The notes under the pieces were generated by a model. The model had not been told where the DNA came from. It saw nothing but the letters and a program-made list of their open reading frames with translations, and did no database searches. A program made the translations under genes and the position numbers. 64,000 nucleotides of DNA from Mustelus asterias. Taxonomy: Eukaryota. The DNA lies in assembly GCF_964213995.1 (NCBI RefSeq), contig NC_135830.1, positions 9,858,001 through 9,922,000 of the forward strand, given 5' to 3'. This document shows, piece after piece, positions 2,061-62,778 of the stretch (its first letter is position 1; the number at the start of each line of letters is the position of its first letter).

Positions 2061-2402
2061 GATATCAGAAGGTGAAGATTTACAGACAGAAATCTCAAAC
2101 CAAATAACTGACAGAGTCACTCAATTCATCTGGACCTGAATATCATCAGCCTTTGAATCTAGAAGGAGAAATGTTTCTCTGTTCTGTCTGCGAGAGAAGA
2201 TTTTAAACATCAGCATCACTGGAAAAGCACCAAGACACAGACACACTCAATTGAGAGTGTTCCAGTGCACTGAGGAAAAAGCTTTAACCAGATACACAGC
2301 CCGAAAATACATCGCAGCATTCAGTGGGGAGAGACTGTACTTGTGTTCTGTGTGAGTTTTAACTGATTGTTTAACCTGGAGAGTCACAAGGACACCCGCA
2401 CC

Positions 2403-3329
2403 ATGGAGAAACCGTGGAAATGTGGGGACTGTGGGAAAGGATTCAAAGCTCCATCTGATCTGGAAATTCATCGGCGCAGCCACACTGGGGAGAGGCCGTT
2501 CACCTGCTCTGTGTGTGGGAAGGGATTCACTTTATCATCCAGACTGCAGAGACACCAGCAAGTTCACACTGGGGAGAGACCGTTCGCCTGCCCTCAGTGT
2601 GGGAAGGGATTCAGTCAGTTTTCCAACCTGCGGACACACCAGCGAGTTCACACTGGGGAGAGGCCATTCAGCTGCTCTCAGTGTGGGAAGGGATTCACTC
2701 TGTCATCCAGCCTGCGGACACACCAGCGAGTTCACACTGGGGAGAGACCATTCACCTGCTCTCAGTGTGGGAAGGGATTCAGTCAGTTATCCAACCTACG
2801 GACACACCAGCGAGTTCACACTGGGGAGAGACCATTCACCTGCTCTCAGTGTGGGGAGGGATTCAGTCAGTTATCCAGCATGCAGACACACCACCGAGTT
2901 CACACTGGGGAGAGGCCATTCACCTGCCCTCAGTGTGGGGAGGGATTCACTCAGTCATCCCACCTGCGGACACACCAGCGAGTTCACACTGGGGAGAAAC
3001 CGTTCACCTGCTCTCAATGTGGGGAACGATTCACTCAATTATCCATCCTGCAGATACACCAGCGAGTTCACACTGGGGAGAAACCGTTCACCTGCTCTCA
3101 GTGTGGGAAGGGATTCACTGACTTATCCAACTTGCAGAAACACCTGCGAATTCACACTGGGGAGAGGCCATTCACCTGCCCTCATTGTGGAAAGAGATTC
3201 ACTGACTCATCCAGCCTGCAGAAACACCAGCGAGTTCACACGGGGGAGAGGCCATTCGTCTGCTCTCAATGTGGGAAGGCATTCAGTGTTTCATCTGCCC
3301 TATTGAGACACCAACAAGTTCACGAGTGA
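2403..3329 (+). CDS. C2H2 zinc-finger protein ZNF-1, 11 tandem fingers, no effector domain seen
   Basis: accATGg start, [14 protein letters not shown], 11 CxxC-x12-HxxxH units with TGE[RK]PF linkers, TGA at 3327-3329. Confidence 0.92.
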
Positions 3330-3589
3330 TTCCAGGGGTTGGATTCTGCTGTTGTTGTTCCTGCTCTCAGTTACATCCAGGACTGCATTTTATTCATTCT
3401 CACAGTTGGTCAATGGGGAGGGTCAGAGGGTTTCTTTCTGCTGGACTGGTCGGTCTCATGATTTTGCCTCCAGTGGGCTGATGCTCTTTGAGTCTTGTTG
3501 CGAATACCTGGTTTCAAATTTCACACGGATCACAGAGTGACCGGGTGTTAGGAAGTTCAGAGATATTTAGTCAGCATTTCTGTTTGAAA

Positions 3590-3900
3590 CCTCCCAAATG
3601 CCCATCCAATTTCCTTTGTAATTGTTTATTGTCTCCACTTCCTCCACCCTCGTAGGCAGCGAGTTCCAGGTCATTACCATTCGCTGCATCAAAATATTCT
3701 TCCTCACATCCTCCTCACCCCCCCCCCCCCACCTGCATCTCTGACCCAAAACCTTAAATCTGTGACCCCCTCGTCCTTGTCCCATCAGCGAATGGGAACA
3801 GCTTTTCTTTGTCCACCTTATCTAAATCTGTCAGAATCTTGTCCACCTCTATCAAATCTCCCCTCAACCTCCTTTGCTCCAAGGGAAACAACCCCAGCCT
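3590..3900 (-). mobile_element. Degenerate CR1 3' fragment
   Basis: Minus ORF 3567-3785 contains QRMVMTWNSLPTRVEEVETI, a CR1 ORF2 C-terminal signature. Confidence 0.7.
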
Positions 3901-4739
3901 GACATTGACAATAAAGAACAAACTAACAGAATATGTTAATACCTGAAATCAAATGGGAATGTTTAATTTCTGTTTTAAAGATATTGTAAATATATTGTCC
4001 TGGACAATAAAGGAATTGGAATAACTCACCTTGGGTGTGGTTGAATGGAATATATCAATCTGATATCCACCTACAGTCTAGTGAAAGTCTGGAATGTGTA
4101 GCTGGAAATCCCTCCCTAACAGCACTGTGGATGTCCTGACACCTCAGGCATTGTAGCAGTTCAGGAAGGCAGTGTTGGGGTTGACCATGGCCGAGGCAGC
4201 TACATACAGCCACATATCCTGTTATAGTTGAAGGACAGCAGATTGAATGTGAGGCATTATGGGACTGGACTACCTTGACCACATTCCTGTGACTGCTCAG
4301 TTTCTGCAATCACGGACCATTAAAGCTGCTTAGCAGGGCCCCGATAGAGGACCTGGTGAGAATATTTACTCAGAAGAGTTAGAGGTAAATTTGTTCAGCG
4401 GCTGAGATACCAAATCTGTGAACAGGGGGTCTGACCAATCAACAAACAATCAACAGTTGACTAAAAAATTAAGAAGCGTTCTCATGCATTGTTTAAATCA
4501 ATTTATCCTAAATTTGTGATAAGAACTGTGAGGGACTTGTGACCCAATAGTCGGTGGTGACGGTATACTCCAAGTAGCACTGCACTGAAAAGCGGACCTC
4601 TGAGAGTAGATTCTAATGGTTATAATCCTACCCAAGCATGGCCAGTGAAAAATCAGAGCTCAAGTGGGAACCGGACAGGTCTCTTACCTGCTATTTGGAA
4701 ACTAAGAACAAGAAACTTATCGATTAAATGATTCGAGAA

Positions 4740-8145: not shown

Positions 8146-8410
8146 ATCTCCCTGTAATGGGTGGAAAAATACTATTTACGACCCAGGATAAAATAAATGT
8201 CCTTCACCAGCTTTTGTGGATCATTTCAGTGGAAATGTGCTCTCCCAGGCTCAAAAAGCATCAGCCCACTGGAAGCAAAGTCGTGAGAGCGGCCAGTCCA
8301 GCAGAAAGAAACCCTCCGACCCTCCCATTGACGAACAGTAAGAATGAACAAAATGCAGTCCTGATGTAACTGAGAGCAGAAACAATAACAGCAGAATTCA
8401 ACCCCTGTAA

Positions 8411-8640
<230 letters not shown>

Positions 8641-9179
8641 GGTGCCAGTATCCTTGTGTCTCTCCGGGTTGGACAATCAGTTCAAGATTCATCTGCACAC
8701 AGAACATGTACAGTTTCACCTCACTTTGAATGGTGTGATATTTTTTCAAGCTGTGTAACTGGTGAAAGTTCTTTCCACAGTCAGTTCACTGGAACGCGCT
8801 CACTCCAGTGTGTGCATGTGTCTCGGTGCTTTTCCAGTCACACTGATGTTTGAAATCTTTTCCCACAGACAGAACAGAGAAACATTTCTCCATCCACATT
8901 CTAAGGTTGACAGTGTTCGTGTGCTGATAAATTGAGCAACTGTGAAATATTAGTAAGAATTTTGATTTGAGTTTCCTGTCTGTAAAACTTCCACTTCAAA
9001 TATTCTGCAAAAGAAGTTTACAAAATCACTGTCAGTATAGGAAAAAAAATCGAAACAGGCAATTCTCGTTTCTCTGGAATATTTTTTCCTCTCTTGTTCC
9101 CCTAAATCAGTAAATCCCCGTCCCACACACTCTCCCTCCTCCCTGGACTGAAATCCAAACCCATCTCACCATTTCTTTC

Positions 9180-9630: not shown

Positions 9631-10240
9631 GACACTGCGCATGCTCCACATCACAATGCCCCGGGACTGATTGACGGCAGCTCCGGACCAATAGGAAGAG
9701 GGGGCGGGGCTGGAGGACCGAGCGGGAGCGGCTGGTCCCCCAACCAATCGGAGTGAATGAGGGGCGGGACTGGAGGAACGAGCGGGAGCGGCTGGTCCTC
9801 CAACCAATCGGAGTGAATGAGGGGCGGGACTGGAGGACCGAGCGGGAGCGGCTGGTCCTCCAACCAATCGCACTGAATGAGGGCCCGGACCAATAGGAAG
9901 AGTTCCCTATTCTTTGCATGGGAGAGATGCACATGCGCAGTAAGCAACGGCGTTCGCAGTGCGGGTGACAGCGACTGGAGAGAAGTTCCTCTGTTTTATT
10001 AGCAGCCGGTAAGGATGCAGAAACATAGAGGGAGCAATGGAAGCGGCAGATGGACGTAGAGGGTTTCTAAATATCTGGTGAAGGCCTCAAACCTCGAATA
10101 TGAGCCCGTAGGTCCCGTGTTTGCAGCTTCAGGTCTTTTTCCCGAGACGAAGCTCAGGTTAACGGCCGCCATCTTGATTCAGCGGGGAGCAGAGCGCACG
10201 CGTTGGTGTCTTGGTGACGCAACCGTGAGTGGGCGGGTCT
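9631..10240. promoter_or_regulatory. Bidirectional promoter core between ZNF-2 (minus) and ZNF-3 (plus), with 3 x 60-bp repeats
   Basis: Outward NRF1-like actgcgcatgc (9634) and catgcgcagt (9932); 60-bp period (9711, 9771, 9831), each unit with CCAAT, GGGGCGGG and the palindrome; GTAAGG donor ~10008; YY1-like gccgccatctt ~10165. Confidence 0.8.
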
Positions 10241-12640: not shown

Positions 12641-13599
12641 CTGCATCCAAGACCTTTCAGGATGTGAAAGGTTTCAATTAAGTTGCCTCTTACTCTTTTA
12701 AACTCGAGCAGAAGCTAAACTCGAGCAGAGACTGTCTCACTGCTCCTCATCAGACAATCCACCTATTCCAGGTATTAGTCTACTAAACCTACTATGAACT
12801 TCTTCTAATGCACTTATATTTTTCCTTAAATAAGGAAATCGATAATGTAGACATTGCTCCAGATACAGACTCACCGTGTGCAACTGAAACATAACTTGCC
12901 TGCTTTTACTCCATTCCCCTCATAACAAATAATAGCTTTCTGAACTACTTGTACCTGTATTTTCTATCGTGATGGATTTTGAACACTTTTTTTTTACAGT
13001 GGGTTAGAAATTGAGGATTTACACACAACAAGCTCAAACCAAGAGAAAATGTTGTCTCTTCTGATATAGGCTTTCTGAATGGGATAAGTAGGTAGATGTG
13101 AATGGAATGTTTCCACTTGTTGGTTTTTCCTTTACTGGGAACCATGAACAGACAACAAATAAATCAAACAGGAAAATAGGAGATGTTTCTTTCTTCAGAC
13201 AGTTGTTAGAATTTGGAACTCACTGCGACTGGAAGTGGTTGACACAAATACTTTAGATGCTTTCAAAAGGAAAATATATGAGCCTATGAGAGAAAAGGGA
13301 TTGGAAAAATAAACTGAAAAGCTGAGATGTGGTGATCAGAATGAGAGGAGACTCATGTGGAGTATAAACTCCAGTACAGACTCGATAAACCGAATGGCCT
13401 GTTTGTGTATTCTCCTTCCATGTTCAAAGACAATAACAATCAGCTCCTAATGATCCGAGTGACTGTCAGATCTCAACGTGATGTTTGGTTTGTGTTTTCT
13501 TGCTGTAAATCCTCCTTTCCAATATCCTGTAACGGGAGTTTACAAAAGTCATCACTGTCAGTCCAGGATAGATATATTCATAGAATTCCACAGCTCGGA

Positions 13600-13915: not shown

Positions 13916-14130
13916 GCCACGTAATTCTTTGTAAACTTATTTTGCAGGAAATAGAAGAGGAGGATTTGCAGTCTGGACAAACAAATCTCACGTCAGACAG
14001 AGTCAATCGGTTCATTGGGATTTGAAGATTTGTACATCTGAAGGGATTTAATTGACCATCTCAGTTGGAAACTGGTGAGAATCTGTTTCCTTGCTCCTCC
14101 TGTGGGGAGGGATTGATACAGCTGGAAAAC

Positions 14131-15336
14131 ATGCTGACACGACAGCGAACTCGCAATAGTGAGAGTTCATTCACCTGCTCCGTGTGTGGGAAGAAATTCA
14201 TGTGTTCGTCCAACCTGCTGGCTCACCAACTCAATCACATTATTCAGAAGCCTCTTCAAAGCTCTGACTCTGGGGAAAGCATTGAAACCTCTGAGGGACA
14301 GGCCCAACACCAGCTCCTTCACACTGACGAGAGACCGTTCAGCTGCTCCCACTGCGGGAAGAGGTTCAGCCAGTCCTCCCGCCTTGCAGAGCACCAGCTC
14401 CTTCACACACACGAGAGACCGTTCAGCTGCTCCCACTGTGGGGAGTCATTCAGCGACTCAGTGCATCTCACTGAGCACCAACAAGTTCACACCAAGGACA
14501 GGCCATTCAGCTGCTCCCAGTGTGGGAAGAGATTCACTCAGTCCTCCCACTGCACCGTTCACCAACAGATTCATTTTCAGAAGAGACATTTTAAATGCTT
14601 TAAATGTGAGAAGACCTTCAAAAGAAGGATTAGTCTGCTGAGACACCAGGGCACTCACACTGGGGAGAGGCCATACGTTTGCCCTGTGTGTGGGAAAACA
14701 TTTACTTGTTTGCAGCATCTGCTGAGTCACCGGCCTATTCACACCGGGGAGAAGGCATTCATCTGCTCCGTGTGTGGGAAGGCTTTCACGGAGTCATCCA
14801 GCCTCTGGAGACACCGCCGCATTCACACAGGGGAGAAGCCGTTCTCCTGCTCCATTTGTGGCAAAAGATTTGCTCAGATTTCCTCCTGCAATCAACACCA
14901 ACACATTCACTCTGATAAGAGACCTTTTCAATGCTCAGAATGCAATAAGACCTTTAAAAGAAGTGATGATCTGCTGAAACACAAACGCATTCACACCGGG
15001 GAGAGGCCGTCCCTGTGCTCTGTGTGTGGAAAGGGATTCGCTCAGTCGTCTGGCCTGCTGAGACACCAACGCATTCACACCGGGGAGAAGCCGTTCACCT
15101 GCTCTGTGTGTGGGAAGGGATTCACTGATTCATCCTATATGCTGAAACACCAGCGAGTTCACACTGCGACAGAACCGTTCACCTGCTCCCTGTGTGGGAA
15201 GGGATTCACTGATCCATCCCGCCTGCAGAGACACCAGCGAGTTCACACTGGGGCAAAACCTTTCAACTGCTCCATGTGTGGGAAGGGATTTAATCAGTAT
15301 TACAGCCTGCTGAAACATAGACGACTTCATGTGTGA
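14131..15336 (+). CDS. C2H2 zinc-finger protein ZNF-3, 13 intact fingers plus degenerate ones; divergent subfamily
   Basis: Open frame 14065-15336 with first ATG at 14131; acceptor ttttgcAG at 13947; lacks the MEKPWKC finger. Start codon uncertain. Confidence 0.88.
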   Translation: MLTRQRTRNSESSFTCSVCGKKFMCSSNLLAHQLNHIIQKPLQSSDSGESIETSEGQAQHQLLHTDERPFSCSHCGKRFSQSSRLAEHQLLHTHERPFSCSHCGESFSDSVHLTEHQQVHTKDRPFSCSQCGKRFTQSSHCTVHQQIHFQKRHFKCFKCEKTFKRRISLLRHQGTHTGERPYVCPVCGKTFTCLQHLLSHRPIHTGEKAFICSVCGKAFTESSSLWRHRRIHTGEKPFSCSICGKRFAQISSCNQHQHIHSDKRPFQCSECNKTFKRSDDLLKHKRIHTGERPSLCSVCGKGFAQSSGLLRHQRIHTGEKPFTCSVCGKGFTDSSYMLKHQRVHTATEPFTCSLCGKGFTDPSRLQRHQRVHTGAKPFNCSMCGKGFNQYYSLLKHRRLHV

Positions 15337-17585: not shown

Positions 17586-17929
17586 CCTCTGTACTATCAT
17601 TACATTGGATCCAATACTGTGTTCACTAACACACTGCAGCCTGACTTATTATTGGAATAAACACTGTGTTTGTTACACTCAGAGTAAGTAATCTAAAGTA
17701 AATCAAGGCAATCCATGACGAAGGGTCATCCAGACTCGAAACGTTGGCTGGAATCTCTCTCCACAGTTGCTGTCAGACCTGCTGAGGTTTTGCAGCATTT
17801 TCTGTTTTGAAGTCAGTGCTTTGCTGTGTTGTCTCTGTGCTCCATCCCCACTCTGATTGTATTGGAGCCTGTGTGGGTCATTGTTACACTGAGACTCTGT
17901 CACTGTGATTATTGGACAAACAGCAAGTC

Positions 17930-18875
17930 ACCGTCACAATGCCCGGCTGATTGACGGCAGCGCGGACCAATGGGAAGAGAAGGGGCGCGGTTGGAGGTCC
18001 GAGCGGAGAGGCTGGTACATTGGGGAAACTATGCAGACGCTGCGACAACGGATGAATGAACACCGCTCGACAATCACCAGGCAAGACTGTTCTCTTCCTG
18101 TTGGGGAGCACTTCAGCGGTCACGGGCATTCGGCCTCTGATATTCGGGTAAGCGTTCTCCAAGGCGGCCTTCGCGACACACGACAGCGCAGAGTCGCGGA
18201 GCAGAAACTGATAGCCAGGTTCCGCACACACAAGGACGGCCTCAACCGGGATATTGGGTTTATGTCACACTATTTCACATAAATATTTCTGCTTTTTTCC
18301 TCCTGAGTCTTTATCATGCGATCCTAGAATCAGAATTTATGTCACACTATTTGTAACTCCCACAGTTGCGTGGACCTGCAGAGTTTCACTGGCTGTCTTG
18401 TCTGGAGACAATACACATCTTTTTAGCCTGTCTTGATGCTCTCTCCACTCCCATTGTTTTGTTTCTTAAAGACTGGATTAGTTGTAAGTATTCGCATTCC
18501 AACCATTATTCATGTAAATTGAGTCTGTGTCTTATAAGTTCTGTTTGTGAACAGAATTCCCACTCACCTGAAGAAGGGGCTCAGAGCCTCGAAAGCTTGT
18601 GTGGCTTTTGCTACCAAATAAACCTGTTGGACTTTAACCTGGTGTTGTTAAACTTCTTACTGTGTTTACCCCAGTCCAACGCCGGCATCTCCACATCATG
18701 ACCTCCAACCAATCACAGTGAATGAGGGGCGGGGCCCGTTCTGACTGGAGCATGCGCAGTGTGGATAATGGCGACGGAGACGGGCTGTTTTTTCGTCTCG
18801 GAGATAGGTCAGAGGTGATTGACGGTACGGAGGGGGCGAGGGATCTCGAGGGTGGACGGAAACGCTGCGTAAGCA
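17930..18875 (+). promoter_or_regulatory. ZNF-4 promoter core split by a Penelope insertion
   Basis: 17930-18015 and 18700-18775 rejoin into the 9650-9960 module; GTAAGC donor at 18869. Confidence 0.75.
18014..18699 (+). mobile_element. Penelope-like element 3' part (GIY-YIG C-terminus plus terminal repeat with hammerhead motif)
   Basis: WYIGETMQTLRQRMNEH..VAEQKLIARFRTHKDGLN; ctgaagaaggggctcagagcctcgaaagc at 18568. Confidence 0.9.
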
Positions 18876-20430: not shown

Positions 20431-21551
20431 GCATATATGCAACAAGGCGCATGCGCAGCCGGCATCGTTTTCGGGGGTAATATTGTCATTGACTGGGAGG
20501 AGCTTGTTCCCCAGTGTTCAGAATGGAGACAACTTGTCCATCAAACTGCATCAACCCTCTGAGTCCCAATGTCTTATTGATGAGGCAGAGCGGTGGCAGA
20601 GAAGGAAAGAAAGGGAAAGAGCTTTGACAAAGGGTCATCTGGCCTCAACGTCAGCTCTTTTCTCTCCTCACAGATGCTGCCAGACCGGCTGAGATTTTCC
20701 AGCATTTTCTCTTTTGGAAAGGGAAATAAATTCTGCTTTCCAGATCCCACTATATCATGGGATGTTTTTCCCATTCATCTTCTGTTCCACCATCCTCATA
20801 GGTAGCGAGTTCCAGATCATGTGCTCTCCCTACCCAAGTATAAATCTTCCTCAAATCCCTGCTCTATCACTCTGCAAATAATGTCCTGTATATTACACTT
20901 TTATCCAGTATTATAGATATCTGTCTGGCAGTCTGCATGGAGATTTTCAGCTCCCTGTGTCCAGGACAGGAAGCAGTGAGCATGGATCTGTCAATCAGCC
21001 TCAATCAGCACCTTCAGGAGAATTGGGAGGGTGAATATTAGACACAGCAGAGTGAGAATGGAGAGAGAGTGTGTGGGATGGAGATTTACACCTTTTGGGG
21101 AATGAGAGAGGAAAGAATGTTCCATAGAAACTTGAACTGTCTGTTCTGAATTTCTATCTTGTACTGACATTGATGACTTTTGTAAATTCCTTTTACAGGA
21201 TATTAGAAGGTGAGGATTTACAGACAGAAATCTCAAACCAAACGTCACATCAATATCTGACAGAGTCCTCAATTCGTCGGGATCTGAATATTATCGACCT
21301 TTGAATCCAGAATGGAAATGTTTCTCTGTTCTGTCTGCTTCAGGAGATTTTAAATTTCAGTGTGACTGGAAAAGCACCAAGGCACACACCCGAGTGAGAG
21401 TGTTCCAGTGCACTGAGTGTGGAAAGAGCTTTAACCAGTTACACAGCCTGAAAATACATCGCAGCATTCACAGCGGGGAGAGACTGTACCCGTGTTCTGT
21501 GTGAGATTTAACTGATTGTTTAACCTGGAGAGTCACAAGGACACCCGCACC

Positions 21552-22397
21552 ATGGAGAAACTGTGGAAATGTGGGGAATGTGGGAAAGGATTCAGTTTTC
21601 CATCTCAGCTGGAAATTCATCGACGCAGTCACACTGGGGAGAGACCGTTCACCTGCTCTGTGTGTGGGAAGGGATACACTCAGATAATTGATTTACAGAG
21701 ACACCAGCGAGTTCACACTGGGGAGAGGCCATTTACTTGCTCTGAGTGTGGGAAAGGATTCACTCGGTTATCCAGTCTGCAGAGACACCATCAATTTCAC
21801 ACTGGGGAGAGACCTTTCATCTGCTCTGTGTGTGGGAAGGGATTCACTCAGTTAATTGATTTGCAGAGCCATCAGCGAGTTCACACTGGGGAGAGGCCGT
21901 TCACTTGCTCTGTGTGTGGGAAAGGATTCAGTGTGGCATCAGGCCTGCGGAGACACCAGTTAGTTCACACTGGGGAGAGGCCGTTCACATGCTCTGTGTG
22001 TGGGAAAGGATTCAGTCAGTTGCCCTACTTGTTGAGGCACAATGTCACTCACACCCAAGAGAGACCCTTTAAATGCTCTGACTGTGGGAGGGATTTCAAA
22101 AGCTCTCAGCTAATGATGTCCCACCAGCGAATTCACACTGAGGAGAGACCTTTCAGCTGCTCTCACTGCACAAAGAGATTCAGATCATCATCTGCCCTGC
22201 GGACACACCAGCGAGTTCACACTGGGGAGAGGCCATTCCCCTGCACCGTGTGTGGGAAGGGATTCACTCAGTCATCCCGACTGCAGAAACACCAGCGAGT
22301 TCACACTGGGGAGAGGCCATTCCCCTGCACCGTGTGTGGGAAGGGATTCACTCAGTCATCCCGACTGCAGACACACCAGCGAGTTCACAAGTCATAG
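21552..22397 (+). CDS. C2H2 zinc-finger protein ZNF-4, 10 fingers
   Basis: accATGg [14 protein letters not shown]; acceptor at 21198; stop TAG supplied by the adjacent CR1 tail. Confidence 0.92.
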
Positions 22398-32150: not shown

Positions 32151-32993
32151 TCACTCGTGAACTTGTTGGTGTCTCAGCAGCCGGGATGAAACTGTGAATC
32201 CCTTCCCACACTGAGAGCAGGTGAACGGCCTCTCTCCAGTGTGAACTCGCTGGTGTGTCCGCAGGTCGGATGACTGAGTGAATCCCTTCCCACACTGAGA
32301 GCAGGTGAATGGTTTCTCCCCAGTATGAACTCGCTGGTGTCTCTGCAGGTCGGCTGACTGAGTGAATCCCTTCCCACACTGAGGGCAGGTGAACGGCCTC
32401 TCCCTGGTGTGAATTCGCTGGTGTCTCTGCAGGTCGGCTGACCGAGTGAATCCCTTCCCACACTGAGAGCAGGTGAATGGCCTCTCCCTGGTGTGAATTC
32501 GCTGGTGTGTCCGCAAATGCGACGACTGAGTGAATCCCTTCCCACACTGAGAACAGGTGAACGGCCTCTCCCCAGTGTGAACTCGCTGGTGTGACTGCAG
32601 GTTGGATGACTGAGTGAATTCCTGCCCACACTGAGAGCAGGTGAATGGCCTCTCCCCAGTGTGAACTCGCTGGTGTGTCTGCAGGTGGGATGACCGAGTG
32701 AATCCCTTCCCACACTGAGAGCAGGTGAATGGTCTCTCCCCAGTGTGAACTCGCTGGTGTGTCCGCAGGTTGGATAATTGAGTGAATCCCTCCCCACACT
32801 GAGAGCAGGTGAATGGTCTCTCCCCAGTGTGAACTCGCTGGTGCATCCGTAGGCTGGATAAATAATTAAATCCCTTCTTACACTGAGAGCAGATGAATGG
32901 CTTCTCCCCAGTATGGCTGCGCCGATGAATTTCCAGCTTAGATGGGGCTCCGTATCCCTTCCCACAGTCCACACATTTCCATGGTTTTTCCAT
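32151..32993 (-). CDS. C2H2 zinc-finger protein ZNF-5, 10 fingers
   Basis: [23 protein letters not shown]; acceptor at 33306; close paralog of ZNF-1. Confidence 0.92.
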
Positions 32994-34019
32994 GGTGCAG
33001 GTGATCTTGCCTCAGTTGAAGCCTCGTCCACACACAGAATACGGGTACCGTCTCTCCCAGCTGCGAATGGTGTGATATTTATTCAGGCTGTGTAACTGGT
33101 TAAAGCTCTTTAGTCAGTGCACTGGAACGCTGTTGGTGCTTTTCCAGTCACACTGATGTTTGAAATCTTTTCAAATCAACAGACCGGACAACCATTTCTC
33201 CTTCTAGATTCAAAGGCCAATGATATTCAACTCCCAAGGAATATGATTCTGTTGGGTCTCGATGTGATTTTTGAGATTTCTGCCTGTGATTCCTCTTTCA
33301 ACATCCTGTAAAACGAGTTTACAAAAGTCATCAGTGTCAGAACAGAAATTCAGAACAGACAATTCTAGTTTCTATGGAGCATTCTTTCCTCTCTCATTCC
33401 CCAAAAGCCGTGAATCTCCATCCCACTCACTCTCCCTCCATTCTCACTCTGCTGTATCTAATATTCACCCTCCCAATTCTCCTGAAGGTACTGATTGAGG
33501 CTGATTGACAGATCCATGCTCACTGCTTCCACTCCAGCACATAGAAATCATAAGAAATAGAAGCAACAGTTGGCCATTCAGCCCATCGAATTGCCACAAC
33601 CATTCAGTGAGAATTGGCCGATCTACCTCAGCACCATTTCCCACGCTCTCCCCCAGATCACTCAATGTCTTCAATATCTCAAAACTTATCAATCTCCGGC
33701 TTGAAATTTCTCGATGACTGAGGCTCCACAGTCCTCTGGGGTGCAGAATTCCAAAACTACACCACATACTTGAGTGAGGAAATCCCTCCTCATCTTAACT
33801 TTCTCTCCATTTCCCTACCTGTTTCCCATAACCCTTGACACCTTTATCAATCAAAAATCAGTGTAACTCACCCTGGAATATATTCAATGGCCCTCAACCT
33901 CCACTGATCCCTGTGGAGAAGAAATCCAAACACGAATGACTCTAATAGGCAAGAGATGAATGACTGGAAATATCTAAGGTAGCGACAGTACAATATTAAT
34001 CTGTCTGAAGCTCAATCTT

Positions 34020-37421: not shown

Positions 37422-38227
37422 TTATCCATGTATCTGAAACCCTCCCTCCTACACCATCCCTGCAACCACATATTTAACTGCACTCTCTCCCTGTTCCTCA
37501 ACTCGCTATCAGGTGGTACCGGCAACGTACCAGAGATGACCACATGTTTCGTCTTGGCTCTCAGCTTCCAGCCCAGCTCCAGAAATTCCTGCTTTAAATC
37601 CCCGTCCCTTCTCTTACCTATGTCATTGGTACCAATGTGCACCACGACTTGTGACTGTTTCCCCTCCCCCTTCAGAATCTGGAAAACACGGTCTGAGACA
37701 TCACGGACCTTGGCATCCGGTAGGCAACATACCATCCGTGAGTCTCTTTTGCTGCCACAGAACCTCCTATCTATCCCTCTAACTAACGAGTCCCCAATAA
37801 CTATCGCCCTCCCGCTCTCCCCCTTTCCCTCCCGAGCCACAGAGACGGACACAGTGCTGGAGATCCTCTCACTGCGGCTCCCCACTGGTATGTCATCCCC
37901 CTCAACCGTATCCAAAGCGGAATACTTGTTGCTAAGGGGAACGACCACCGGGGATCCCTGCACGGACTGCTTCCTCCCAGCCCCTCTCACCGTCACCCAT
38001 CTGTTTTCAATCCTCGGAGTAACTGTATTCCTAAAGCTTGTGTCTATGGCCATCTCTGCGTCCCTGATGATCCTAAGTTCATCCAACTCCAGCTCCAGTT
38101 CCCTAACACGGTTTTGGAGGAGCTGCAGATGGGTGCACTTCCCACAGGTGTAATCAGCAGGGACACTGTCGTCGTCCCTCACCTCAAACATAGTGCAAGA
38201 GGAACATTGCACTGCCTGCACACCCAT
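37301..38227 (-). CDS. CR1 ORF1: CxxC..CxxC zinc module, coiled coil and SGNH esterase
   Basis: CSSC..CGKC, LQNRVRELELELDEL, IVIGDSLVRG, HIGTND, DGVHLN. Confidence 0.92.
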   Translation of the reverse strand: MGVQAVQCSSCTMFEVRDDDSVPADYTCGKCTHLQLLQNRVRELELELDELRIIRDAEMAIDTSFRNTVTPRIENRWVTVRGAGRKQSVQGSPVVVPLSNKYSALDTVEGDDIPVGSRSERISSTVSVSVAREGKGESGRAIVIGDSLVRGIDRRFCGSKRDSRMVCCLPDAKVRDVSDRVFQILKGEGKQSQVVVHIGTNDIGKRRDGDLKQEFLELGWKLRAKTKHVVISGTLPVPPDSELRNRERVQLNMWLQGWCRREGFRYMDNWNTFWGRWDLYKQDGVHLNQRGTNILGGKFVTALQGGLN

Positions 38228-38305
38228 CCCCTCGAGATACCTTGCCAGTACCAGGTAGAAAGTGCAAAAATGAATTCAACTCACCCCTGCTCGCCCTTTC
38301 AGCCT

Positions 38306-41884: not shown

Positions 41885-42364
41885 GTTTTGTGTCTTAGGC
41901 TGCCCTCCAGGGGAAGACTTTGGGAAATGAGAGAGAAAAGAATGCTCCATAGAAATTAGAATTGTCTGTTCTGAATTTCTATGTTGTACTGACACTGATG
42001 ACTTTTGCAAATTCCTTTTGCAGGATATCAGAAGGTGAAGATTTAAAGACGAATATCAAACCAAACTTCACATCAAAATCTAACATAGTCACTCAGTTCA
42101 TTGGGACCTGAATATCATCGACCTTTGAATCTAGAATGGAAATGTTTCTCTGCTCTGTCTGCTTCAGGAGATTTTAAACATCAGTGTGACTGGAAAAGCA
42201 CCGAGACACACACACACTGAAACATGCACACACCTGAGTGACTGTGGAAAGAACTTTAACCAGTTAAACAGCCTGAAAATACATTGCAGCAGAGAGACCG
42301 CACCCATGTTATGTTGTAATTGAACTGATTGTCAAACCTGGAGAGTCACAAGGACACCCGCACC

Positions 42365-42871
42365 ATGGAGAAACTGTGTAAATGTGGGGACTGTGGGAAA
42401 GGATTCAGGTTCCCATCTGCACTGGAAACTCATCGGCGCAGTCACACTGGGGAGAGAACATTCACCTGCTGTGTGTGTGGGAAGGGATTCACTCAGTTAT
42501 CCCATTTACAATTACACCAGGCAGTTCACACCGGGAAGAGGCCATTCACCTGCTCTGTGTGTGGGAAGGGATTCACTCAGTTGCCCAACCTGTTGAGCCA
42601 CAAGGTCACTCACACCCAAGACAGACCCTTTCAATGCTCTGACTGTGGGAGTGGCTTCAAAAGCTCTCGGGAACTGATGGTCCACCAACCCATTCACACT
42701 GACGAGAGACCGTTTAGCTGCTCTCACTGCTCAAAGAGGTTTAGGAGGTCATCCACACGGCGGAGACACCAGCGAGTTCACACCGGGGAGAGACCGTTCA
42801 CCTGCTTTGTGTGTGGGAAGGGATTCAATCGGTCATCCAACCTGCAGAGACACCAGCAAGTTCACAAGTGA
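42365..42871 (+). CDS. C2H2 zinc-finger protein ZNF-6, 6 fingers
   Basis: accATGg [23 protein letters not shown]; acceptor at 42023; paralog of ZNF-4. Confidence 0.82.
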   Translation: MEKLCKCGDCGKGFRFPSALETHRRSHTGERTFTCCVCGKGFTQLSHLQLHQAVHTGKRPFTCSVCGKGFTQLPNLLSHKVTHTQDRPFQCSDCGSGFKSSRELMVHQPIHTDERPFSCSHCSKRFRRSSTRRRHQRVHTGERPFTCFVCGKGFNRSSNLQRHQQVHK

Positions 42872-42954: not shown

Positions 42955-43181
42955 AGGATGGATGAATCTCTGACTCCCTTCCCACACTGTGAGCAGGTGA
43001 CTAGCCTCTCCTCAGCGTGAATTCACTGGTGTCTCAGCAGATTCGATGAATGATTGAATCCCTTCCCACAAGTGCAGCATATGAACGGTCTCTCCCCGGT
43101 GTGACTGCGTCGATGAGATTCTACCTCAGATGGGGCTCTGAATCCCTTCCCACAGTCTCCACATTTCCATGGTTTCTCCAT
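42955..43181 (-). pseudogene. ZNF-7 pseudogene
   Basis: MEKPWKC finger, TGA (43023-43025) before the last His of finger 2, broken third finger, 3' part deleted. Confidence 0.85.
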
Positions 43182-43504
43182 GGTGTCGGAGTCCTTGTGT
43201 CTCTCCACAATCAGTGCACTGGAACACTCTGATACGGGTGTGTGAATCTCAGTGCTTTTCCACTCACACTGATGTTAAAAAGGTTGATGATTTTCACGTC
43301 CTTATGAATCAAGTGACTCTTTTGAGATTTCCATTTTCCAAACCTCTCCTTCCAATATCCACTGAAAGCAGTTTACAAAAATCATCACTGTCAGCACATG
43401 ATAGAAATTCAAAACAGACAATTGTAGTTTCTATGGAACATTCTTTAAATTTCCACCCACGCCCCTCACACATACACTCTCTCTCTCATTCCATTGAGCA
43501 TTCT

Positions 43505-47779: not shown

Positions 47780-48370
47780 TTAATTGTGGATTCGTTGGTG
47801 TTTCAGGAGGTTGGATGACTGAGAGAATCCCTTGCCACAATCAGAGCAGGTGAACGGCCTCTCCCCAGTGTGAATTCGCTGATGTACAGTGAGGTTATAT
47901 GATTGTCTGAATCCAGTCCCACAGTGTATGCATCTGAATGGCCTCTCGTCAGTGTGAGCACATTGATGGCGCATCAGTACACCAGATCTTTTAAAGCACT
48001 TCCCACAGTCTGAGCATTTAAAAGGTCTCTCATCAGTGTGAACATGCTGGTGTGTCAGCAGGTAAGATGAAGCAGTGAATCCTTTCCCACATTCGGAGCA
48101 GGTGAATGGTCTCTCCCCAGTGTGAACTCGCTGGTGTGATAGCAGTTTGGATGACTGAGTGAATCCCTTCCCACATTCGGTGCAGGTGAATGGTCTCTTC
48201 CCAGTGTGAATTTGCTGGTGTGTCAGCAAGTGGGAGGACCTAACGAATCCCTTCTCACACTCAGAGCAGGAGAATGGCCTCTCCCCAGTGTGACTACGAC
48301 GATGGATTTCCAGTTTGGATGGGTAACGGAATCCCTTCCCACAGTCCACACATTTCCACGATTTCTCCAT
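47780..48370 (-). CDS. C2H2 zinc-finger protein ZNF-8, 7 fingers
   Basis: [23 protein letters not shown]..; acceptor at 48575; intron end shared with ZNF-11. Confidence 0.88.
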
Positions 48371-48739
48371 GGAGTGACTGCACTAACGTTTCGACAGGCT
48401 GAAGCCTTGTCCACACGCAGAACACATGTACAGTTTCTCTCCACTGTGAATGGAGCTTTTCAGTTCTGTGTTCAAAATCTGACGATATTCAGGCTAGGAT
48501 GCATTCAGCAGCTGTCAGACTTTGATGCGATGATGAGGTTGTTTCCAGACTGTAACTCCTCCCCTTCCGATACTCTGTGAATAGGATTTCAAACAGAAAA
48601 AAAGGAGTGAGAGAGAACCTACAGAAACAAAAAGGCAGGTTGTGAAATTGAGCTGAATGAACCTGGGAATGGGTGGGACCGGCACAAGGTGAAAGTGACC
48701 CTGGCAGCTGTCGCTCTGTCCACATTGGGTGCACATCAT

Positions 48740-53280: not shown

Positions 53281-53286
53281 CACTAT

Positions 53287-54435
53287 TCAGTCCTGGGTGT
53301 GATTAACAGCAGCAATAACAGCAGAATCCAACCCCTGCTGTCGCCTGTGAACTTGCTGGTGTTTCAGCAGGTTGTTTGACTGAGCGAATCCCTTCCCACA
53401 CATGGAGCAGTTGAACGGCCTTTCCCCAGTGTGAACTCGCTGGTGTTTCAGCAGATTCTGTTTACTTTTAAATCTCTTCTCACAATCAGAACATTCAAAA
53501 GGTCTCTGATCAGTGTGAACAAGTTGGTGTGTAGTCAGGTGGGATGACTGAGTGAATCTCTTGCCGCACAGGAGGCAAGTGTAAGGTCTCTCTCCAGTGT
53601 GAACTCGCCGGTGTATCAGAAGGTCGGATGTATCAATGAATTCCTGACAACACACAGGGCAGGTGAACGGCCTCTCCCCAGTGTGAACTCGATGGTGTCT
53701 CAGAAGGTGAGCTAACCGAGTGAATCCCTTCCCACAGAGAGAGCAGGTGAATGGCCTCTCCCCAGTGTGAGTGTGCTGGTGTTTCAGAAGATCCTTTTTG
53801 CTTTTAAATGTTTTCTCACATTCAGAACAATTGAAAGGTCTCTGATCAGTGTGAACAAATCGATGTTTCAGAAGCTGGGATGAACAAGTGAATCCCTTCC
53901 CACACACGGAGCAGATGAACGGCCTCTCCCCAGTATGAGTGCGTTGGTGAATCAGTAAATCCTTTTTACTTTTAAAGTTCTTCTCGCAATCAGAACATTT
54001 AAATGGTCTCCGATCAGTGTGAACACTTTGGTGTGTCAGGAGGTGGGATGACTGAGTGAATCCCTTACCACACATGTTACAGATGAATGGCCTCTCCCCA
54101 GTGTGAGTGCGTTGGTGAATCAACAAATCCTTTCTGCTTTTAAAGCTCTTCCCACACTCACAACATTTAAACGGTCTCTGATCAGAGTGAACCTGGTGGT
54201 GAGTCCGGAGGTTTGATAAAGCATTAAATCCCTTCCCACATTGAAGACAGGTGAATGGCCTCTCACCAGTATGGACATGCTGGTGTGTGTACAGGCTGGA
54301 TGACTGAGTGAATCCCTTCCCACACACACAGCAGGTGAATGGTCTCTCCCCAGTGTGAATACGTCGATGGGTTTCCAATTCAGATGGGTAATTGAATCCC
54401 GTCCCACAGTCCGCACATTTCCACGGTTTCTCCAT
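53287..54435 (-). CDS. C2H2 zinc-finger protein ZNF-9, 13 fingers plus C-terminal tail RRQQGLDSAVIAAVNHTQD
   Basis: atcATGg MEKPWKCADCGTGFNYPSELETH; acceptor at 54904. Confidence 0.92.
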   Translation of the reverse strand: MEKPWKCADCGTGFNYPSELETHRRIHTGERPFTCCVCGKGFTQSSSLYTHQHVHTGERPFTCLQCGKGFNALSNLRTHHQVHSDQRPFKCCECGKSFKSRKDLLIHQRTHTGERPFICNMCGKGFTQSSHLLTHQSVHTDRRPFKCSDCEKNFKSKKDLLIHQRTHTGERPFICSVCGKGFTCSSQLLKHRFVHTDQRPFNCSECEKTFKSKKDLLKHQHTHTGERPFTCSLCGKGFTRLAHLLRHHRVHTGERPFTCPVCCQEFIDTSDLLIHRRVHTGERPYTCLLCGKRFTQSSHLTTHQLVHTDQRPFECSDCEKRFKSKQNLLKHQRVHTGERPFNCSMCGKGFAQSNNLLKHQQVHRRQQGLDSAVIAAVNHTQD

Positions 54436-54436
54436 G

Positions 54437-54561
54437 ATTATTGACAGGCTATCGGGTGTAGGCGGGATGCAGATTTGAGCTCACTATCAGATCAGCCATG
54501 ATGTTATTAAATGGCGGAACTGGCCCGTGGGGCCGAATGGCCTATTGCTGCTCCTTGTTCA
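54437..54561 (+). mobile_element. CR1 3' UTR fragment inserted at the ZNF-9 start codon
   Basis: agatcagccatgat..ggccgaatggcct..ctgctcct motifs; CATG duplicated at 54433-54436 and 54562-54565. Confidence 0.8.
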
Positions 54562-55529
54562 CATGGTGCCGGTGTCCTCCTGTCTCTCCAGGTTATATAA
54601 TCAGTTGAAACCAGGTCCACACAGAGAACACGAGTACGGTGTCTACCTGATGTAAATGTGCTATTTCTTTTCACGCTGTGTGACTGGTTAAAGCTCTGTT
54701 CCAGCTGACTGTGGAAAAATAACTGAGATGTCTGTGTCTCGGGGCTTTTCCAGTCACACTGATGTTGAATAATTTCCCAAAGACAAAATAGGCAAACGTT
54801 TCTCCTTCCACATTCATAGGCCTTTGAAATTCAGATCCTGAAGAACCATGTGACACTGTCAGATCCCGAGACGTTTGGTTTGAATCGCCCGTCTGCAGAT
54901 ATTCTGGAAAAGGAGTTTACATTGAATTACTTTGAATATACAAGACACAAACAAGCCATTCAGTTTAATTCTTTATACTTGACACATCTTCTCCTGTCCC
55001 ATAGACCTAATCTCAGCCTTTCAGTTGATTTTTCTATTTCTTTTTCTCTCGTGTGTTTCTCCCATTTCCTTTTGAAACAATCTCAGCACTTTCCTCAACT
55101 CATTTCTATGGTGTTTCTAAACCTGTGAGTGAAGACGTTTGTCCTCATTGCCTTCTTGGATTTATTAGTAACTGTCTGGTATTTATGACTCTTTGTTTAT
55201 TGATCGTTCCTTCTTTTAGACTCTGTCACGAGTGGAAACATTCTCTCTACATTTCCCCTGTCCAAGCCACTAATAATTTTAAAGACTTCTATCAGGTCAC
55301 TGCTCCATAGGAAAAACCTTCAATCCATTTAATCTTTCCTGAAAGCTGTAATCTCTGTTGACAAACATCATCACAGTCAATGCAGAATAGAAATCACAGA
55401 GAGACAAACATTCCTCTTGGAGTTGAGTTTTCTGTGTGCAAATCGTCAATTTGTAACAATGTGTAAAAGCAGTTTTCAAACATCTTTCAGTGTCAATCCA
55501 CAATAGAAATGCTGAACAGACAATTCACT

Positions 55530-55940
55530 TTCCTCCACTCCCAGTTTTCTCCCTCCCTCCTCTGTCTGGGTTCAGTTCTCCAGCTCCTGTCTGCAGACTA
55601 ACAATAAAACCAATGGGTCTGATTGGGGGGTTTGCAGCCTCCAGCGGGTGTTTGTGAATCCTCCCCGCCCACCTCCCAGGGTTTCCTTCCTTTCCAGAGA
55701 TCAGAGTCCTCATTGATTTGAGGCCAAAGTGTAACCTCTTATTTATTGTCCCCCTCCCCCATCCTCTGATGTGAACCATCCTCCAGTGGCTGAGCCAGGA
55801 TGGGGCCGTTAACCTGGGCCTGTTCCCGGGAGGGAGGGAGGGAGAAGCCCCGCAGCTGCAAACCAGGGAGCTGACAATGATTCTGAAGGGTTTGCGGATC
55901 CACAAATTGTTTCCAAATCCTCCCCAATGTCCAGCCACCT
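55530..55940 (-). repeat. Second copy of the ~400-bp 5'/intron-1 block
   Basis: Nearly identical to 9180-9580. Confidence 0.9.
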
Positions 55941-56136
55941 GCTGTCCCTGCGGTAAAGCCAGGGCCTGTTTCCTGGGCCAGAAGTTGGTGCTGTTTCCAG
56001 TACAGCCGTGGTTTCCATTCCTATCCTGTGCTCACAAACTCCTCCCGAACCCTCCCCAGCACCATGACTGACACTGAGCATGCTCAGAGCGTGCACCCAC
56101 ACCACCTGATGTGGAGATGCCGGTGTTGGACTGGGT

Positions 56137-56180
56137 GAGTCACCTGATGAAGGGGCGGCGCTCCGAAAGCTCCTGATTCC
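56137..56180 (+). ncRNA. Minimal hammerhead ribozyme motif in a short Penelope terminus (56107-56228)
   Basis: CTGATGA (56144) - A - GGGGC/GCTCC stem II - GAAA (56165) - GCTC, with gagtca/tgattc stem I. Confidence 0.65.
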
Positions 56181-56229
56181 AAATAAACCTGTTAGATGTG
56201 AACCTGGTGTTGTGACTTCTTACTGTGCA

Positions 56230-56910
56230 CACCACACCTGCGCAGTGCGTTCCCAGGCTCCCCAGCGCTTTATCATCTTTGCGCATGCTCCACTCCCAGC
56301 CTGGGCCCGCCCCTCATTCACTCCGATTCGTTGGAGGACCAGCCGCTCCCGCTCGGTCCTCCAGCCCCGCCCCTATTCACTCCGATTGGTTGGAGGATCA
56401 ACCGCTCCCGCTCCGTCCTCCAGCCCCGCCCCCTCTTCCTATTGGTCCGGAGCTGCCGTCAATCAGTCCCCGGGCATTGTGATGTGGAGCATGCGCAGTG
56501 CCTGCGGCAGACGGTAAGGCGCTCGAGCGAGCAGGTTTTAAATGGAGATTTTTACAAAGATCCAGTGCGGATCCAGAGCCCAAAATAAAATTGGAAACAT
56601 AAATGGAGTTGGCGGGTGGATGGTGAGGCTTTATAAACACCCGGTGTCGGCCACAAACCCTCAATTTGCAAAGCAAATTCCTCGGGCCTTCCGAAGGCTT
56701 CAGACCCGAGTTCACATCCGCCATCTTTAGAGGGAACCAAGTATTGCAAAGCGCATGCGCATCCGCCATCTTTGTTGAGGTAAATTGGAATAACGCATGC
56801 GCAGCCACCATACTTCTTGAGGGTGAAACCAAATGAATAACCCACTGGAGACAAAAAAAATCAGACAGTTTGTTATAAAATCAATGTGTTGTTGTAAAAC
56901 CGGAAGTTAG
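56230..56910. promoter_or_regulatory. Bidirectional promoter between ZNF-9 (minus) and ZNF-10 (plus)
   Basis: Two ~60-bp units with ATTGG, GC box and palindrome (56333-56362); NRF1-like gcgcatgcgc ~56751 and ~56795; YY1-like ccgccatctt ~56718 and ~56763; ETS ccggaagt ~56900; GTAAGG donor ~56514. Confidence 0.8.
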
Positions 56911-57770: not shown

Positions 57771-58242
57771 CAGCTCAGGGAGGAGGGGAGAGGGAGAGCT
57801 CAGGGAGGAGGGAGACATAGATTTACTGTTTTGGGGAACCAGACCAGAAAAGTTGTTCCTTAGAAATTAGACTTGTCTGATCAGAATTCTATCCTGGACT
57901 GACAGTAGTTTTGTAAACTCCTTTTGCAGGATATTTGAAGGGGAAAATTTACAGTCAGCAAAATGGAATCAAGTTTCACACCAAGATTTAACAGTTGCTC
58001 AATTCACCAGCACCTGAACACTATCAGCCTTTGAATGTGGAGTGTGGGGAAATATTTCAAACTTCAGTGTGACTGGAAAAGCACCGAGAGAGAGACACAC
58101 CCGAGTGAGAGTTTTCCAGTGAACTGACTGTGGAAAGAGCTTTAACCAGTTACACAGCCTGAAAAAACATCACACCATTCACAGCAATGTGAATCTGTGC
58201 ATGTGTTCATTGTGTGGATGAGGCTTCAACTAATCACCCAAT

Positions 58243-58776
58243 ATGGAGAGACATGATGATATTGACACCATAGAAAAAACGTGGATATGTGTGGACTGTG
58301 GGAAAGCATTCACTTGCCCATCCAAACTGGAAACTCATCGACGCACCCACACTGGGGAGAGGCCCTTCACCTGCCCCGTGTGTTGGAAGGAATTTACTCA
58401 ATCATCCTGCCTAACATTACACCAGCGAGTTCACACTGGAGAGAGACCGTACACTTGCTCTGTGTGTGGGAAGGGATTCGTCCAGATGTATAACCTACAA
58501 TTACACCGGAGAATTCATACTGGGGAGAGGCCGTTCACCTGCTCCGTGTGTGGAAAGCGATTCATTAATTCATCCAACCTCGTGACACACCAGAGAGTTC
58601 ACACTGAGGAGAGGCCGTTCAGCTGCACTGACTGTGGAAAGAGCTTCAGACATTCATCCAGCCTCAAAGCACATCAGCGACTTCACACTGGGGAGAGACC
58701 ATTCACCTGCTCAGAGTGTGGGAAGGGATTCACTACCTCCTCCCACCTGGTGACACACCAGCGACTTCACGAGTGA
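58243..58776 (+). CDS. C2H2 zinc-finger protein ZNF-10, 6 fingers
   Basis: aatATGg start; [19 protein letters not shown] first finger; acceptor at 57929. Confidence 0.85.
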
Positions 58777-60184: not shown

Positions 60185-61125
60185 GGTGGGAGGTGATGGC
60201 CCAATGGTATTATCCCTAGACTTAATCCATAAGCTCCGCTAATGTTCTGGGGACCGGGTTCAAATCCCACCACAGCAAGTGGTGTAATTTGAACAAAGAA
60301 CAAGAAAAAAGAAAATTATAGCACAGGAACAGGCCCTTTGGCCCTCCAAGCCTGCACTGATTATGCTGCCCGTCTGAACTAAAAAGGCCTCCGGGGACCA
60401 TATCCCTCTATTCCCATCTTATTCATGCATTTGTCCAGGTGTCCCTTAAAGGTCACTATCATATCTGCTTCCACTACCTCCCCCGGCAGCGAGTTCCAGG
60501 CACCTGCCACTCTTTGTAAAAAAAAACTTGCCTCGTACATTTAATTCAATAAAAATAATTGAATTCAATTTAAAAAATCAGAATTAAGAATCTACTGCTG
60601 ACCATGAAACCATTGTCAATTGTCAGAAAAAAACCATTTGGTTCAGTAAAGCAAAAAGTAAAGTTTATTTATTAGTCACAAGTAGGCTTACATTAACAGT
60701 GCAGTGAAGTTACTGTGAAATTCCCCTGGTTGCCACACTCCAGTATTTGTTCGAGTCAATACACCGAACCAGCATGTCTTTCAGACTGTGGGAGGAAACT
60801 GGAGCACCCGGAGGAAACCCATGCAGACACGCAGAGAACGTGCAAACTCCACACAGACAGTGACCCAAGCCGGGAATCGAACCCGGGTCCCTGGCGCTGT
60901 GAGGCAACAGTGTTAACCACTGTGCCACCCCATGAATGTCTGTTTGGGGAAGGAAACCTGCTGTCCTTACCTGGTCTGGCCGACATGTGACTCCAGAGCC
61001 ATAGCATTGTGGCTGACTGTCAACTGCCCTCTGAAATGGCCTAGTGAGCCACTCAGTTCGATGGTAACTGGGGATGGGCAATAAATGCTGGCCATGCAGT
61101 GACGCCCATGTCCCACAAATGCATA
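60185..61125 (+). mobile_element. SacSINE1-like SINE split by a CR1 tail (60295-60540, minus) and an HE1-related SINE (60655-60932, minus)
   Basis: Three collinear pieces match 23175-23510. Confidence 0.75.
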
Positions 61126-61326
61126 AAAAATCCTCACAGTTTAAATTCACACAGACATTCTGTCTCCTTTTCTAATTACCACTCACTTCACCCGTTTAAA
61201 AAAAATCAGAAATTACCCACAAAAAATATTTTAATTTCTCAGATTTTCTTGACATATCAGTAGAAATGGACGTCAATGAACATAGTTCATTCCTGGATGT
61301 GATTTACAGTAAAATCCAGTCACTGA

Positions 61327-62280
61327 TTATTTGTGAACTCGCTGGTGACTCATCAGGGTGGATGAGCGAGTGAATCTCTTCCCACACTGAGAGCAGGTGA
61401 ATGGTCTCTCCCCAGTGTGAACTCGCTGGTGTCTCTGCAGGGTGGCTGATTGAGTGAATCCTTTCTCACACTGCAAACAGATGAACGGCTTCTCCCCAGT
61501 GTGAACCCGCTGGTGTGCAGTCAGTTGACATAATTGTCTCAACCCAGTTCCGCAGTGAGAGCACCTGAACGGTCTCTCGTCAGTGTGAACAAGCTGATGG
61601 CGCATCAGGTCCACAGAACCTTTATAGCATTTCTCACAGTCAGCACATTTAAAAGGTCTCTCCCATGTGTGAACTCGATGGTGTTGTAGAAGCCCTGATG
61701 ATCGAGTGAATCTCTTCCCACATTTGAAACAGATGAACGCCTTCTCCCCAGTGTGAATTCGCTGATGTGCAGTGAGTTCAGATGATTGTCTGAACCCAGT
61801 CTCACAGTGAGAGCATCTGAAGGGTCTCTCCTCAGTGTGAACATGCTGATGTCGCATTAGGTTCTGAGAACTTTTATAGCACTTCCCACAGTCCAGGCAT
61901 TTAAATGGTCTCTCATCAGTGTGAACTTGCTGATGTTTCAGCAGAGTGGATGAATCAGTAAATCCCTTCCCACACTTGGAGCAGGTGAATGGCCTCTCCC
62001 CAGTGTGAACTCGGTGGTGTTGTTGCAGCCCAGATGATCGAGTGAATCCCTTCCCACACTCGGGACAGGTGAATGGCTTCTGCCCATTATGAACACGCTG
62101 GTGCCTCAACAGGTTGGATGACCAAGTGAATCCCTTCCCACACTCAGGGCAGGTGAATGGCCTCTCCCCAGCGTGACAGGGCTGATGAGTTTCCAGCTCA
62201 GACGGGGATCTGAATCCCTGCTCACAGTCCCCAGATTTCCACGGTTTATCTACACTGTGAACATTGCTGTTTTCTTGCAT
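61327..62280 (-). CDS. C2H2 zinc-finger protein ZNF-11, 10 intact fingers plus 1 degenerate
   Basis: [26 protein letters not shown]; acceptor at 62361. Confidence 0.9.
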
Positions 62281-62778
62281 GTTAAAAACCCGATGATATT
62301 CAGATCCTGATGTGATGTTTGGTTTGTTTCCCTGACTGCAAATCTTCCCCTTCTAATGCCCTGTGAAACTGATTTAAAACAGAAAAAAGGGAGTGAGAGA
62401 GAACTCTCAAAAACAGAAATGCAGATTGTTAAATTGAGCTGCTTTTAGCGCCAATTTCCCACCCCCTCCCCGAATCCTTTGATTCCCTGAAAAAGCTCTC
62501 CAGCTCTGGGCTAGAATTTTCCTCCATTTTAATCCTGGGAAAACTGCAGTTATTGTCACCGCTCTCTGCTACAAATTCTACCCATTGACTCCATCCCTCT
62601 CCTCGGAAACTGTCTGAGACTGAGCCACAACCAGAGCAAAATATTTCACCCAACCTGAGAATCTGACCACAAATCCACATCATTACCAAGACCAGTTCCA
62701 CCTCAGTAACATCACCCAACTCCAGTCTACTCTCAGTTCATCTGCGGCTGAAACCATCACCCATTCCTTTGTTTTGTT

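Follow-up and report, generated by a model that had tools for sequence, protein, structure and literature searches.

A window of 64,000 nt from the 3.68-Gb genome of Mustelus asterias (contig NC_135830.1, labelled G000:C71:9858001-9922000; "the window" denotes this whole stretch) was found by a motif scan to contain 90 C2H2 zinc-finger motifs in 11 arrays on both strands, named ZNF-1 to ZNF-11. The arrays are copies of one cassette, in which a splice acceptor is followed by a dead, formerly coding leader and then by a finger array under purifying selection; the stops in the leader were fixed before the family expanded, and neither end of the array carries a known effector domain. The genes are probably segmentally duplicated two-part units with a decayed leader and a start codon derived from a finger linker, likely encoding proteins of C2H2 fingers only, which possibly bind transposon sequence.

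The surroundings of the 11 arrays include fragments of long interspersed nuclear elements (LINE) and of long terminal repeat (LTR)-type retroelements. Open reading frames (ORFs) of 6–13 fingers and 168-401 aa were present in nine window genes, each joining at least five fingers by TGEKP-type linkers in one ORF, and the remaining two genes are broken. Pfam PF00096 and PF13465 matched on all 4 window arrays scanned. Beyond the window, 864 kb on five contigs were analyzed; the four outside regions were picked around leader matches and are not a random sample. The family acceptor was present at 88 of 95 arrays with at least three fingers in the 864 kb, 3 of the 7 arrays lacking it sit at the edge of a fetched stretch, and 76 of the 88 carry at least five fingers within a single ORF. 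The 464 kb around the window held 56 arrays with at least three fingers, and a genome-wide leader search returned 4,090 first-look cassette candidates, 40 of them scored.

The fossil leader and the start codon

The initial annotation had described a homologous splice acceptor in all 11 genes, and this was borne out: at 10 positions a pyrimidine tract and AG are followed by the homologous leader, and at ZNF-7 (near 43362, minus strand), whose acceptor had been called degraded, the family AG is TG, with another AG 2 nt upstream. The decayed ISEGEDLQ..EYHQPLNLEGEMF frame was likewise confirmed after the acceptors, together with as many as three broken fingers. The frame had been assigned phase 1, which is wrong, as it is offset by 1 nt and corresponds to intron phase 2 by the usual convention. 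Leader length after the acceptor was 80-470 nt among the window genes, and at least one stop lies between acceptor and start in the array frame of all 11. Full-length leaders, copies outside the window included, matched a profile of 8 window copies with E < 1e-100, excluding chance.

After removal of 9 near-duplicates from 50 long-leader genes, 41 leaders were compared, and their consensus can be read as an acidic spacer followed by three fingers and by a linker that leads into MEKPWK. The pooled ratio of nonsynonymous to synonymous substitution rates (dN/dS) in the ancestral frame was 0.75 (0.60-0.97), and five control frames, shifted and reverse, gave 0.75, 0.89 and 0.69-0.80. The ancestral frame is no different from the controls, indicating that it is not under coding constraint. 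Of 199 leader indels, 132 were not multiples of 3, and the array frame relative to the acceptor was spread 32/23/32 over the three offsets. One codon of fossil finger 1 is TGA in 38/41 copies, and one codon of fossil finger 3 is a stop in 32/41. Since the finger-1 stop is shared so widely and the sawshark model P0063 terminates at the same position, the leader was already dead in the founder of the subfamily, before its expansion. The leader is a neutrally decaying former coding region. That the conserved TGA stops are read through or recoded was ruled out by the frame-breaking indels and the random frame of the array relative to the acceptor. A conserved functional RNA or DNA element was not supported: divergence from consensus was 0.137 in the leader, 0.129 over the final 60 bases of the intron and 0.143 at third codon positions. 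In a short-leader subtype fossil fingers 1-2 are missing, and the start can fall one finger earlier, at MEGKST-like ATGs.

Translation had been proposed to restart usually at accATGGAGAAA. The exact sequence is present in 5/11 genes and a close variant in 3 more; the genes with acceptors at 13947, 57929 and 62361 use other ATGs. The start ATG stands where an old TGEKP linker had its Gly codon: in the W-fingers, which have a Trp four residues further on, this position was M in 62/73 and G, the canonical linker residue, in 3. The strong context CCATGG, supplied by the preceding Thr codon, was found in 40/41 leaders, a set selected on this motif. Mismatch to the consensus fell from 0.168 just before the ATG to 0.086 just after it. 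The first live finger had a dN/dS of 0.37 (0.21-0.61), and its W, P(+1) and E(+5) are near-invariant. Over the 88 genes, 57 starts were MEKPW-type and 14 used another Met; the MEKPWK start also occurs in public models from a sawshark, a Mustelus and a Chiloscyllium. The commonest ORF ends, VHE and VHK, come directly after the last finger, indicating that in most copies an effector is missing from the C-terminus as well. Of the long leaders, 39/41 contain upstream ATGs, and 93/103 upstream ORFs close before the main ATG versus 81% expected; selection against overlapping upstream ORFs was discounted because the copies are non-independent. Ribosomes would reach the main ATG by leaky scanning past the short upstream ORFs or by re-initiation.

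The cassette features of the window are as follows.

453..579, plus strand: ZNF-1 promoter/first-exon element; CCAAT-type repeats, ends at a candidate GT donor; 64 family profile matches in 864 kb
821..1012, plus strand: ZNF-1 first exon, downstream part; two donors, after 877 and after 1012; no coding constraint
2061..2402, plus strand: ZNF-1 fossil leader; acidic spacer, three broken fingers, one short upstream ORF
2403..3329, plus strand: ZNF-1 ORF; 308 aa, 11 fingers, MEKPWK start
8398..9004, minus strand: ZNF-2; leader and broken ORF with ATG 8640, one finger, then a frameshift
10059..10202, minus strand: YY1/TISU-like promoter element upstream of ZNF-2; MAAVN-type ATG; family donor lacks GT
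13376..13575, minus strand: orphan acceptor and partial leader, array absent; from the leader profile search
13948..15336, plus strand: ZNF-3, divergent subtype; ATG 14131, 401 aa, 13 fingers, W-finger absent
21199..22397, plus strand: ZNF-4; long leader, ATG 21552, 281 aa, 10 fingers
32151..33305, minus strand: ZNF-5; long leader, ATG 32993, 280 aa, 10 fingers
42024..42871, plus strand: ZNF-6; long leader, ATG 42365, 168 aa, 6 fingers
43023..43361, minus strand: ZNF-7 pseudogene; degraded acceptor, ATG 43181, stop in finger 2
47780..48574, minus strand: ZNF-8; short leader, ATG 48370, 196 aa, 7 fingers
53287..54903, minus strand: ZNF-9; ~130-nt insertion at the start codon, ATG retained at 54435, 382 aa, 13 fingers
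55417-55530, minus strand: degenerate acceptor; from the leader profile search
55600..56900, both strands: shared head-to-head promoter region of ZNF-9 and ZNF-10; family promoter elements on each strand
57930..58776, plus strand: ZNF-10; linker ATG changed to ATA, in-frame ATG 58243, 177 aa, 6 fingers
61327..62360, minus strand: ZNF-11; short leader, ATG 62280, 317 aa, 10 fingers

The insertion in ZNF-9 (54436-54565, minus strand, ~130 nt) leaves the ATG directly ahead of the first finger and the array intact.

Effector searches, first exons and promoters

The reported absence of KRAB, SCAN and BTB was upheld, as Pfam gave no match to them on 206 upstream ORFs of at least 42 aa, the set to which the BTB search was confined. 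Genome-wide, KRAB gave 8 matches among 76 candidates, on contigs C20 and C19 only and none on C71, the contig of the window; SCAN matches were dispersed and often carried stops, with none on C71 among 150 scored of 604. An effector exon spliced in frame to the array, named beforehand as the outcome that would overturn the annotation, was not seen: in 11/11 window genes every frame is interrupted between acceptor and array, and the spacer frame is open from the acceptor in 0/11 window genes and in 1/88 overall. For an exon as short as the 28-aa FiNZ exon, below the 42-aa threshold of the upstream scan, which was made without a FiNZ profile, the evidence is that the first exons found lack coding constraint and that the leader blocks an in-frame join. 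A spacer profile run against 1.84 billion proteins gave 27 matches. In the 21 of these 27 that were examined and proved unrelated 5' of the spacer, no domain was shared, as expected when gene finders translate untranslated regions (UTRs). The proposal that the family lost its N-terminal module stood in part: an acidic spacer plus three fingers demonstrably died, and loss of an effector module was not borne out.

On C20, seven tandem KRAB-like exons lie ~27 kb apart (G000:C20:1.39-1.71 Mb; L121-L126, L128). We take their peptide to resemble the ancestral PRDM9-type KRAB, which suggests a tandem PRDM9-like array.

Splicing of a first exon to the acceptor is supported by two contigs from relatives, one joining 1012 to 2061 and the other 877 to 2061, both with GT donors. 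These belong to RNA-type contigs from four runs of other organisms, which were only guessed to be RNA. Contig coverage from the four runs was 3-10 times higher on the leader than at the intron end, and contigs of all four covered 462-617, none covering 618-695. The first-exon part at 915-1012 recurs upstream of 27/88 genes, and the element had 2,355 candidates genome-wide. In a set of 11 genes, divergence from consensus was 2.0% in the first exon versus 13.8% in the leader. This uniformity (window 915-1012 and 4-115) could reflect strong constraint, gene conversion or a promoter module that spread recently. A second promoter element, with a YY1/TISU-like ATG, gave 78 matches and stands on the same strand upstream of 26/88 genes. 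The element occurs in the window upstream of ZNF-2. TISU itself is described in PMC2518114. The first exon is best read as promoter or UTR, and possibly as a fossil coding exon.

Within the ZNF-1 first exon, the 3' end of a non-LTR element (window 753-871, also 20309-20433) is inserted between ~21-nt direct repeat copies; the ORF of the element, with a weak zf-RVT match, lies at 19105-20295, and other genes show junctions of this kind. The view of the cassette as a mobile element was rejected: the cassette has an intron and a promoter, and self-comparison of the window gave no shared terminal repeats. To judge from its layout, segmental duplication fits the cassette better. At three loci (L001, L002 and L004; on C118, C111 and elsewhere on C71), 351 nt are 100% identical to window 1980-2330, and these are either very recent duplications or assembly duplicates. 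Three retroelements were annotated between the genes.

17893-18279, plus strand: likely Penelope-like element fragment; weak GIY-YIG match
34410-38275, minus strand: LINE; open esterase-type ORF1 (324 aa) and open endonuclease-reverse transcriptase ORF2 (1004 aa)
40690-41742, plus strand: LTR-retroelement fragment; zinc knuckle and aspartyl protease, adjoining ZNF-6 upstream

Selection on the arrays and competing explanations

Untranslated arrays with a dN/dS near 1, the second outcome named in advance, did not materialize. Finger frameworks and linkers are under purifying selection: in 58 finger pairs dN/dS was 0.38 for linkers and 0.40 for other non-contact residues, relative to a neutral baseline near 0.75 from the leader. 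The C/C/H/H/F/L residues gave 0.02, a value partly built in by the search pattern. Residue diversity was highest at helix positions -1, 3 and 6, and the contact positions were least constrained. The closest named matches of the first finger were sharks and rays, mostly at 72-88% identity, and no chimaera was among the named matches of the first-finger and leader protein searches; of the proposed chondrichthyan radiation, the sharks and rays are accounted for and the chimaeras are not. The data support a large radiation in elasmobranchs, in which fingers-only ORFs follow a fossil leader that no longer codes.

Several points weigh against this reading. No Met precedes the first finger in 14/88 arrays, and 3/88 lack an ORF of at least three fingers. 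The splice support amounts to one contig per joint, from other organisms and from runs guessed to be RNA, all in a single alignment of reads; a run search for the exact window sequence listed no RNA run, which is evidence neither way. Selecting the 41 long leaders by a start-motif pattern and finding the fingers by a C/C/H/H pattern both inflate conservation at the residues concerned. Contact-residue dN/dS was 1.4–1.6 over all pairs, with 1.41 over 14 pairs, where fingers of distant pairs may be mis-paired, and 0.56 (0.24-0.95) over the 7 closest pairs (at least 95% identity), so that positive selection of the arms-race kind is not established. Lastly, a few members are in frame at the front. 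The paralog L050 is open from the acceptor and has a MAAVN first exon joined in frame, the NCBI model P0002 has the same join, and in the ray models P0004, P0041 and P0045 (Hemitrygon, Pristis, Mobula) the spacer is in frame behind a shared PRVVL peptide.

These front-coding members would be explained if a short coding first exon were an undescribed effector, which the family once had or some members still use, with the fingers-only genes as a derived majority. The consensus first exon is indeed open over 57 codons, in phase 2 with the spacer, and the catshark model P0062 splices its first-exon tail to the spacer in the same phase. However, stops occur in 13 of the best 30 first-exon copies, only 1/6 unique unselected copies is both open and in phase, dN/dS is 0.59 (0.34-1.21), and the frame, even where open, dies in the leader. 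The peptide was rejected as an effector, having no Pfam match and no homolog among the longer proteins of the collection, and the MAAVN-type ORFs P0001 and P0002 both leave the finger frame internally. In the ray models 20/37 columns are invariant, including the PRVVL that fits the PxVxL HP1 box (PMC12126490), making them, by motif, a candidate HP1-recruiting family member. The peptide was not found in this genome with one query nor in the 864 kb with a profile, the best ESM Atlas score of the ray N-terminus, 0.85, is an uninformative lead only, and the three models may represent one orthologous gene. We consider an effector in the first exon improbable, and a minority of members (1/88 here and the three ray models) may have kept a coding front end. 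Another possibility is an expansion mostly by birth-and-death drift of a block that duplicates easily, with proteins that are redundant DNA binders under weak constraint and play no particular part against transposons. Such drift would account for the 2/11 broken window copies, the orphan leaders, the loci identical over 351 nt, the 21/88 arrays with less than 90% of their fingers in one ORF, and the lack of excess amino-acid change at contact residues in close pairs. It is opposed by arrays that keep their frame while the adjacent leader decays, by non-contact residues at ~0.4 against the neutral ~0.75, and by persistence of the cassette across sharks and rays, and we give it a low probability as well.

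Relation to known zinc-finger systems and significance

Under the preferred explanation of a fingers-only family, each gene would comprise a promoter with a first exon plus one finger exon. The founder was most likely a truncated gene that started in the old linker and was duplicated many times along with its own promoter. Bare arrays under purifying selection are predicted to bind DNA sequence-specifically. Repression of repeats would come from occupancy or from a partner docking on the fingers themselves, and the invariant W-finger is the leading candidate for that contact.

Human "only zinc fingers" proteins such as ZNF146/OZF also consist of fingers alone. They are isolated genes, whereas the shark family numbers thousands on one cassette with a shared fossil leader. 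KRAB-ZNFs of tetrapods and lobe-finned fish share with it the clustered tandem C2H2 fingers, the TGEKP linkers, a single finger exon opening with a spacer, birth-and-death turnover and the greatest diversity at contact residues (layout and role in Wells et al., 10.1101/2022.11.29.518450). In the shark family, by contrast, the KRAB exon is absent, the spacer is non-coding and the start codon lies inside the finger exon. The FiNZ-ZNFs of cyprinids and the actinopterygian KRAB-like ZNFs are likewise KRAB-free, lineage-specific radiations of hundreds of clustered two-exon genes (Wells et al.; PMC11603059). FiNZ-ZNFs have a conserved coding N-terminal exon, the 28-aa acidic FiNZ, and the actinopterygian KRAB-like domain has been proposed to bind TRIM33, whereas the shark first exon lacks coding constraint. 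Positive selection and knock-down effects on transposons have been found for FiNZ-ZNFs; the shark family is known here from sequence alone. Most likely it acts as the DNA-reading half does in KRAB- and FiNZ-ZNF systems, and it belongs to neither.

By analogy with transposon control by other ZNFs (Wells et al.; PMC11603059; PMC10380595), such control is plausible here too, and the proteins may police transposons without the silencing domain used by land vertebrates. A bolder scenario, which we regard as rather unlikely, is a third, independent shark and ray zinc-finger system against transposons, with thousands of genes that lack an effector domain: an ancestor with a short HP1-box-like N-terminus, still kept in a ray gene, would have been truncated once, gained the linker start and expanded as bare arrays, the invariant lead finger silencing or blocking repeats. 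No paper describing the family was found in the literature searched, which left out most subscription papers. The main text of Wells et al. does not mention shark, chondrichth or cartilaginous, and its supplementary ORF counts (3,221 genomes) may include sharks.

Cartilaginous fish lack KRAB-ZNFs according to PMC8455134 and PMC11603059, and retroelement control in these animals is an open question. The shared fossil leader can serve as an internal neutral clock, and as a diagnostic marker by which the family can be counted and dated. The discussion of Wells et al. suggests that the fingers themselves drive the role of such proteins, and a very large fingers-only family offers a direct test of whether zinc-finger expansions need an effector domain.

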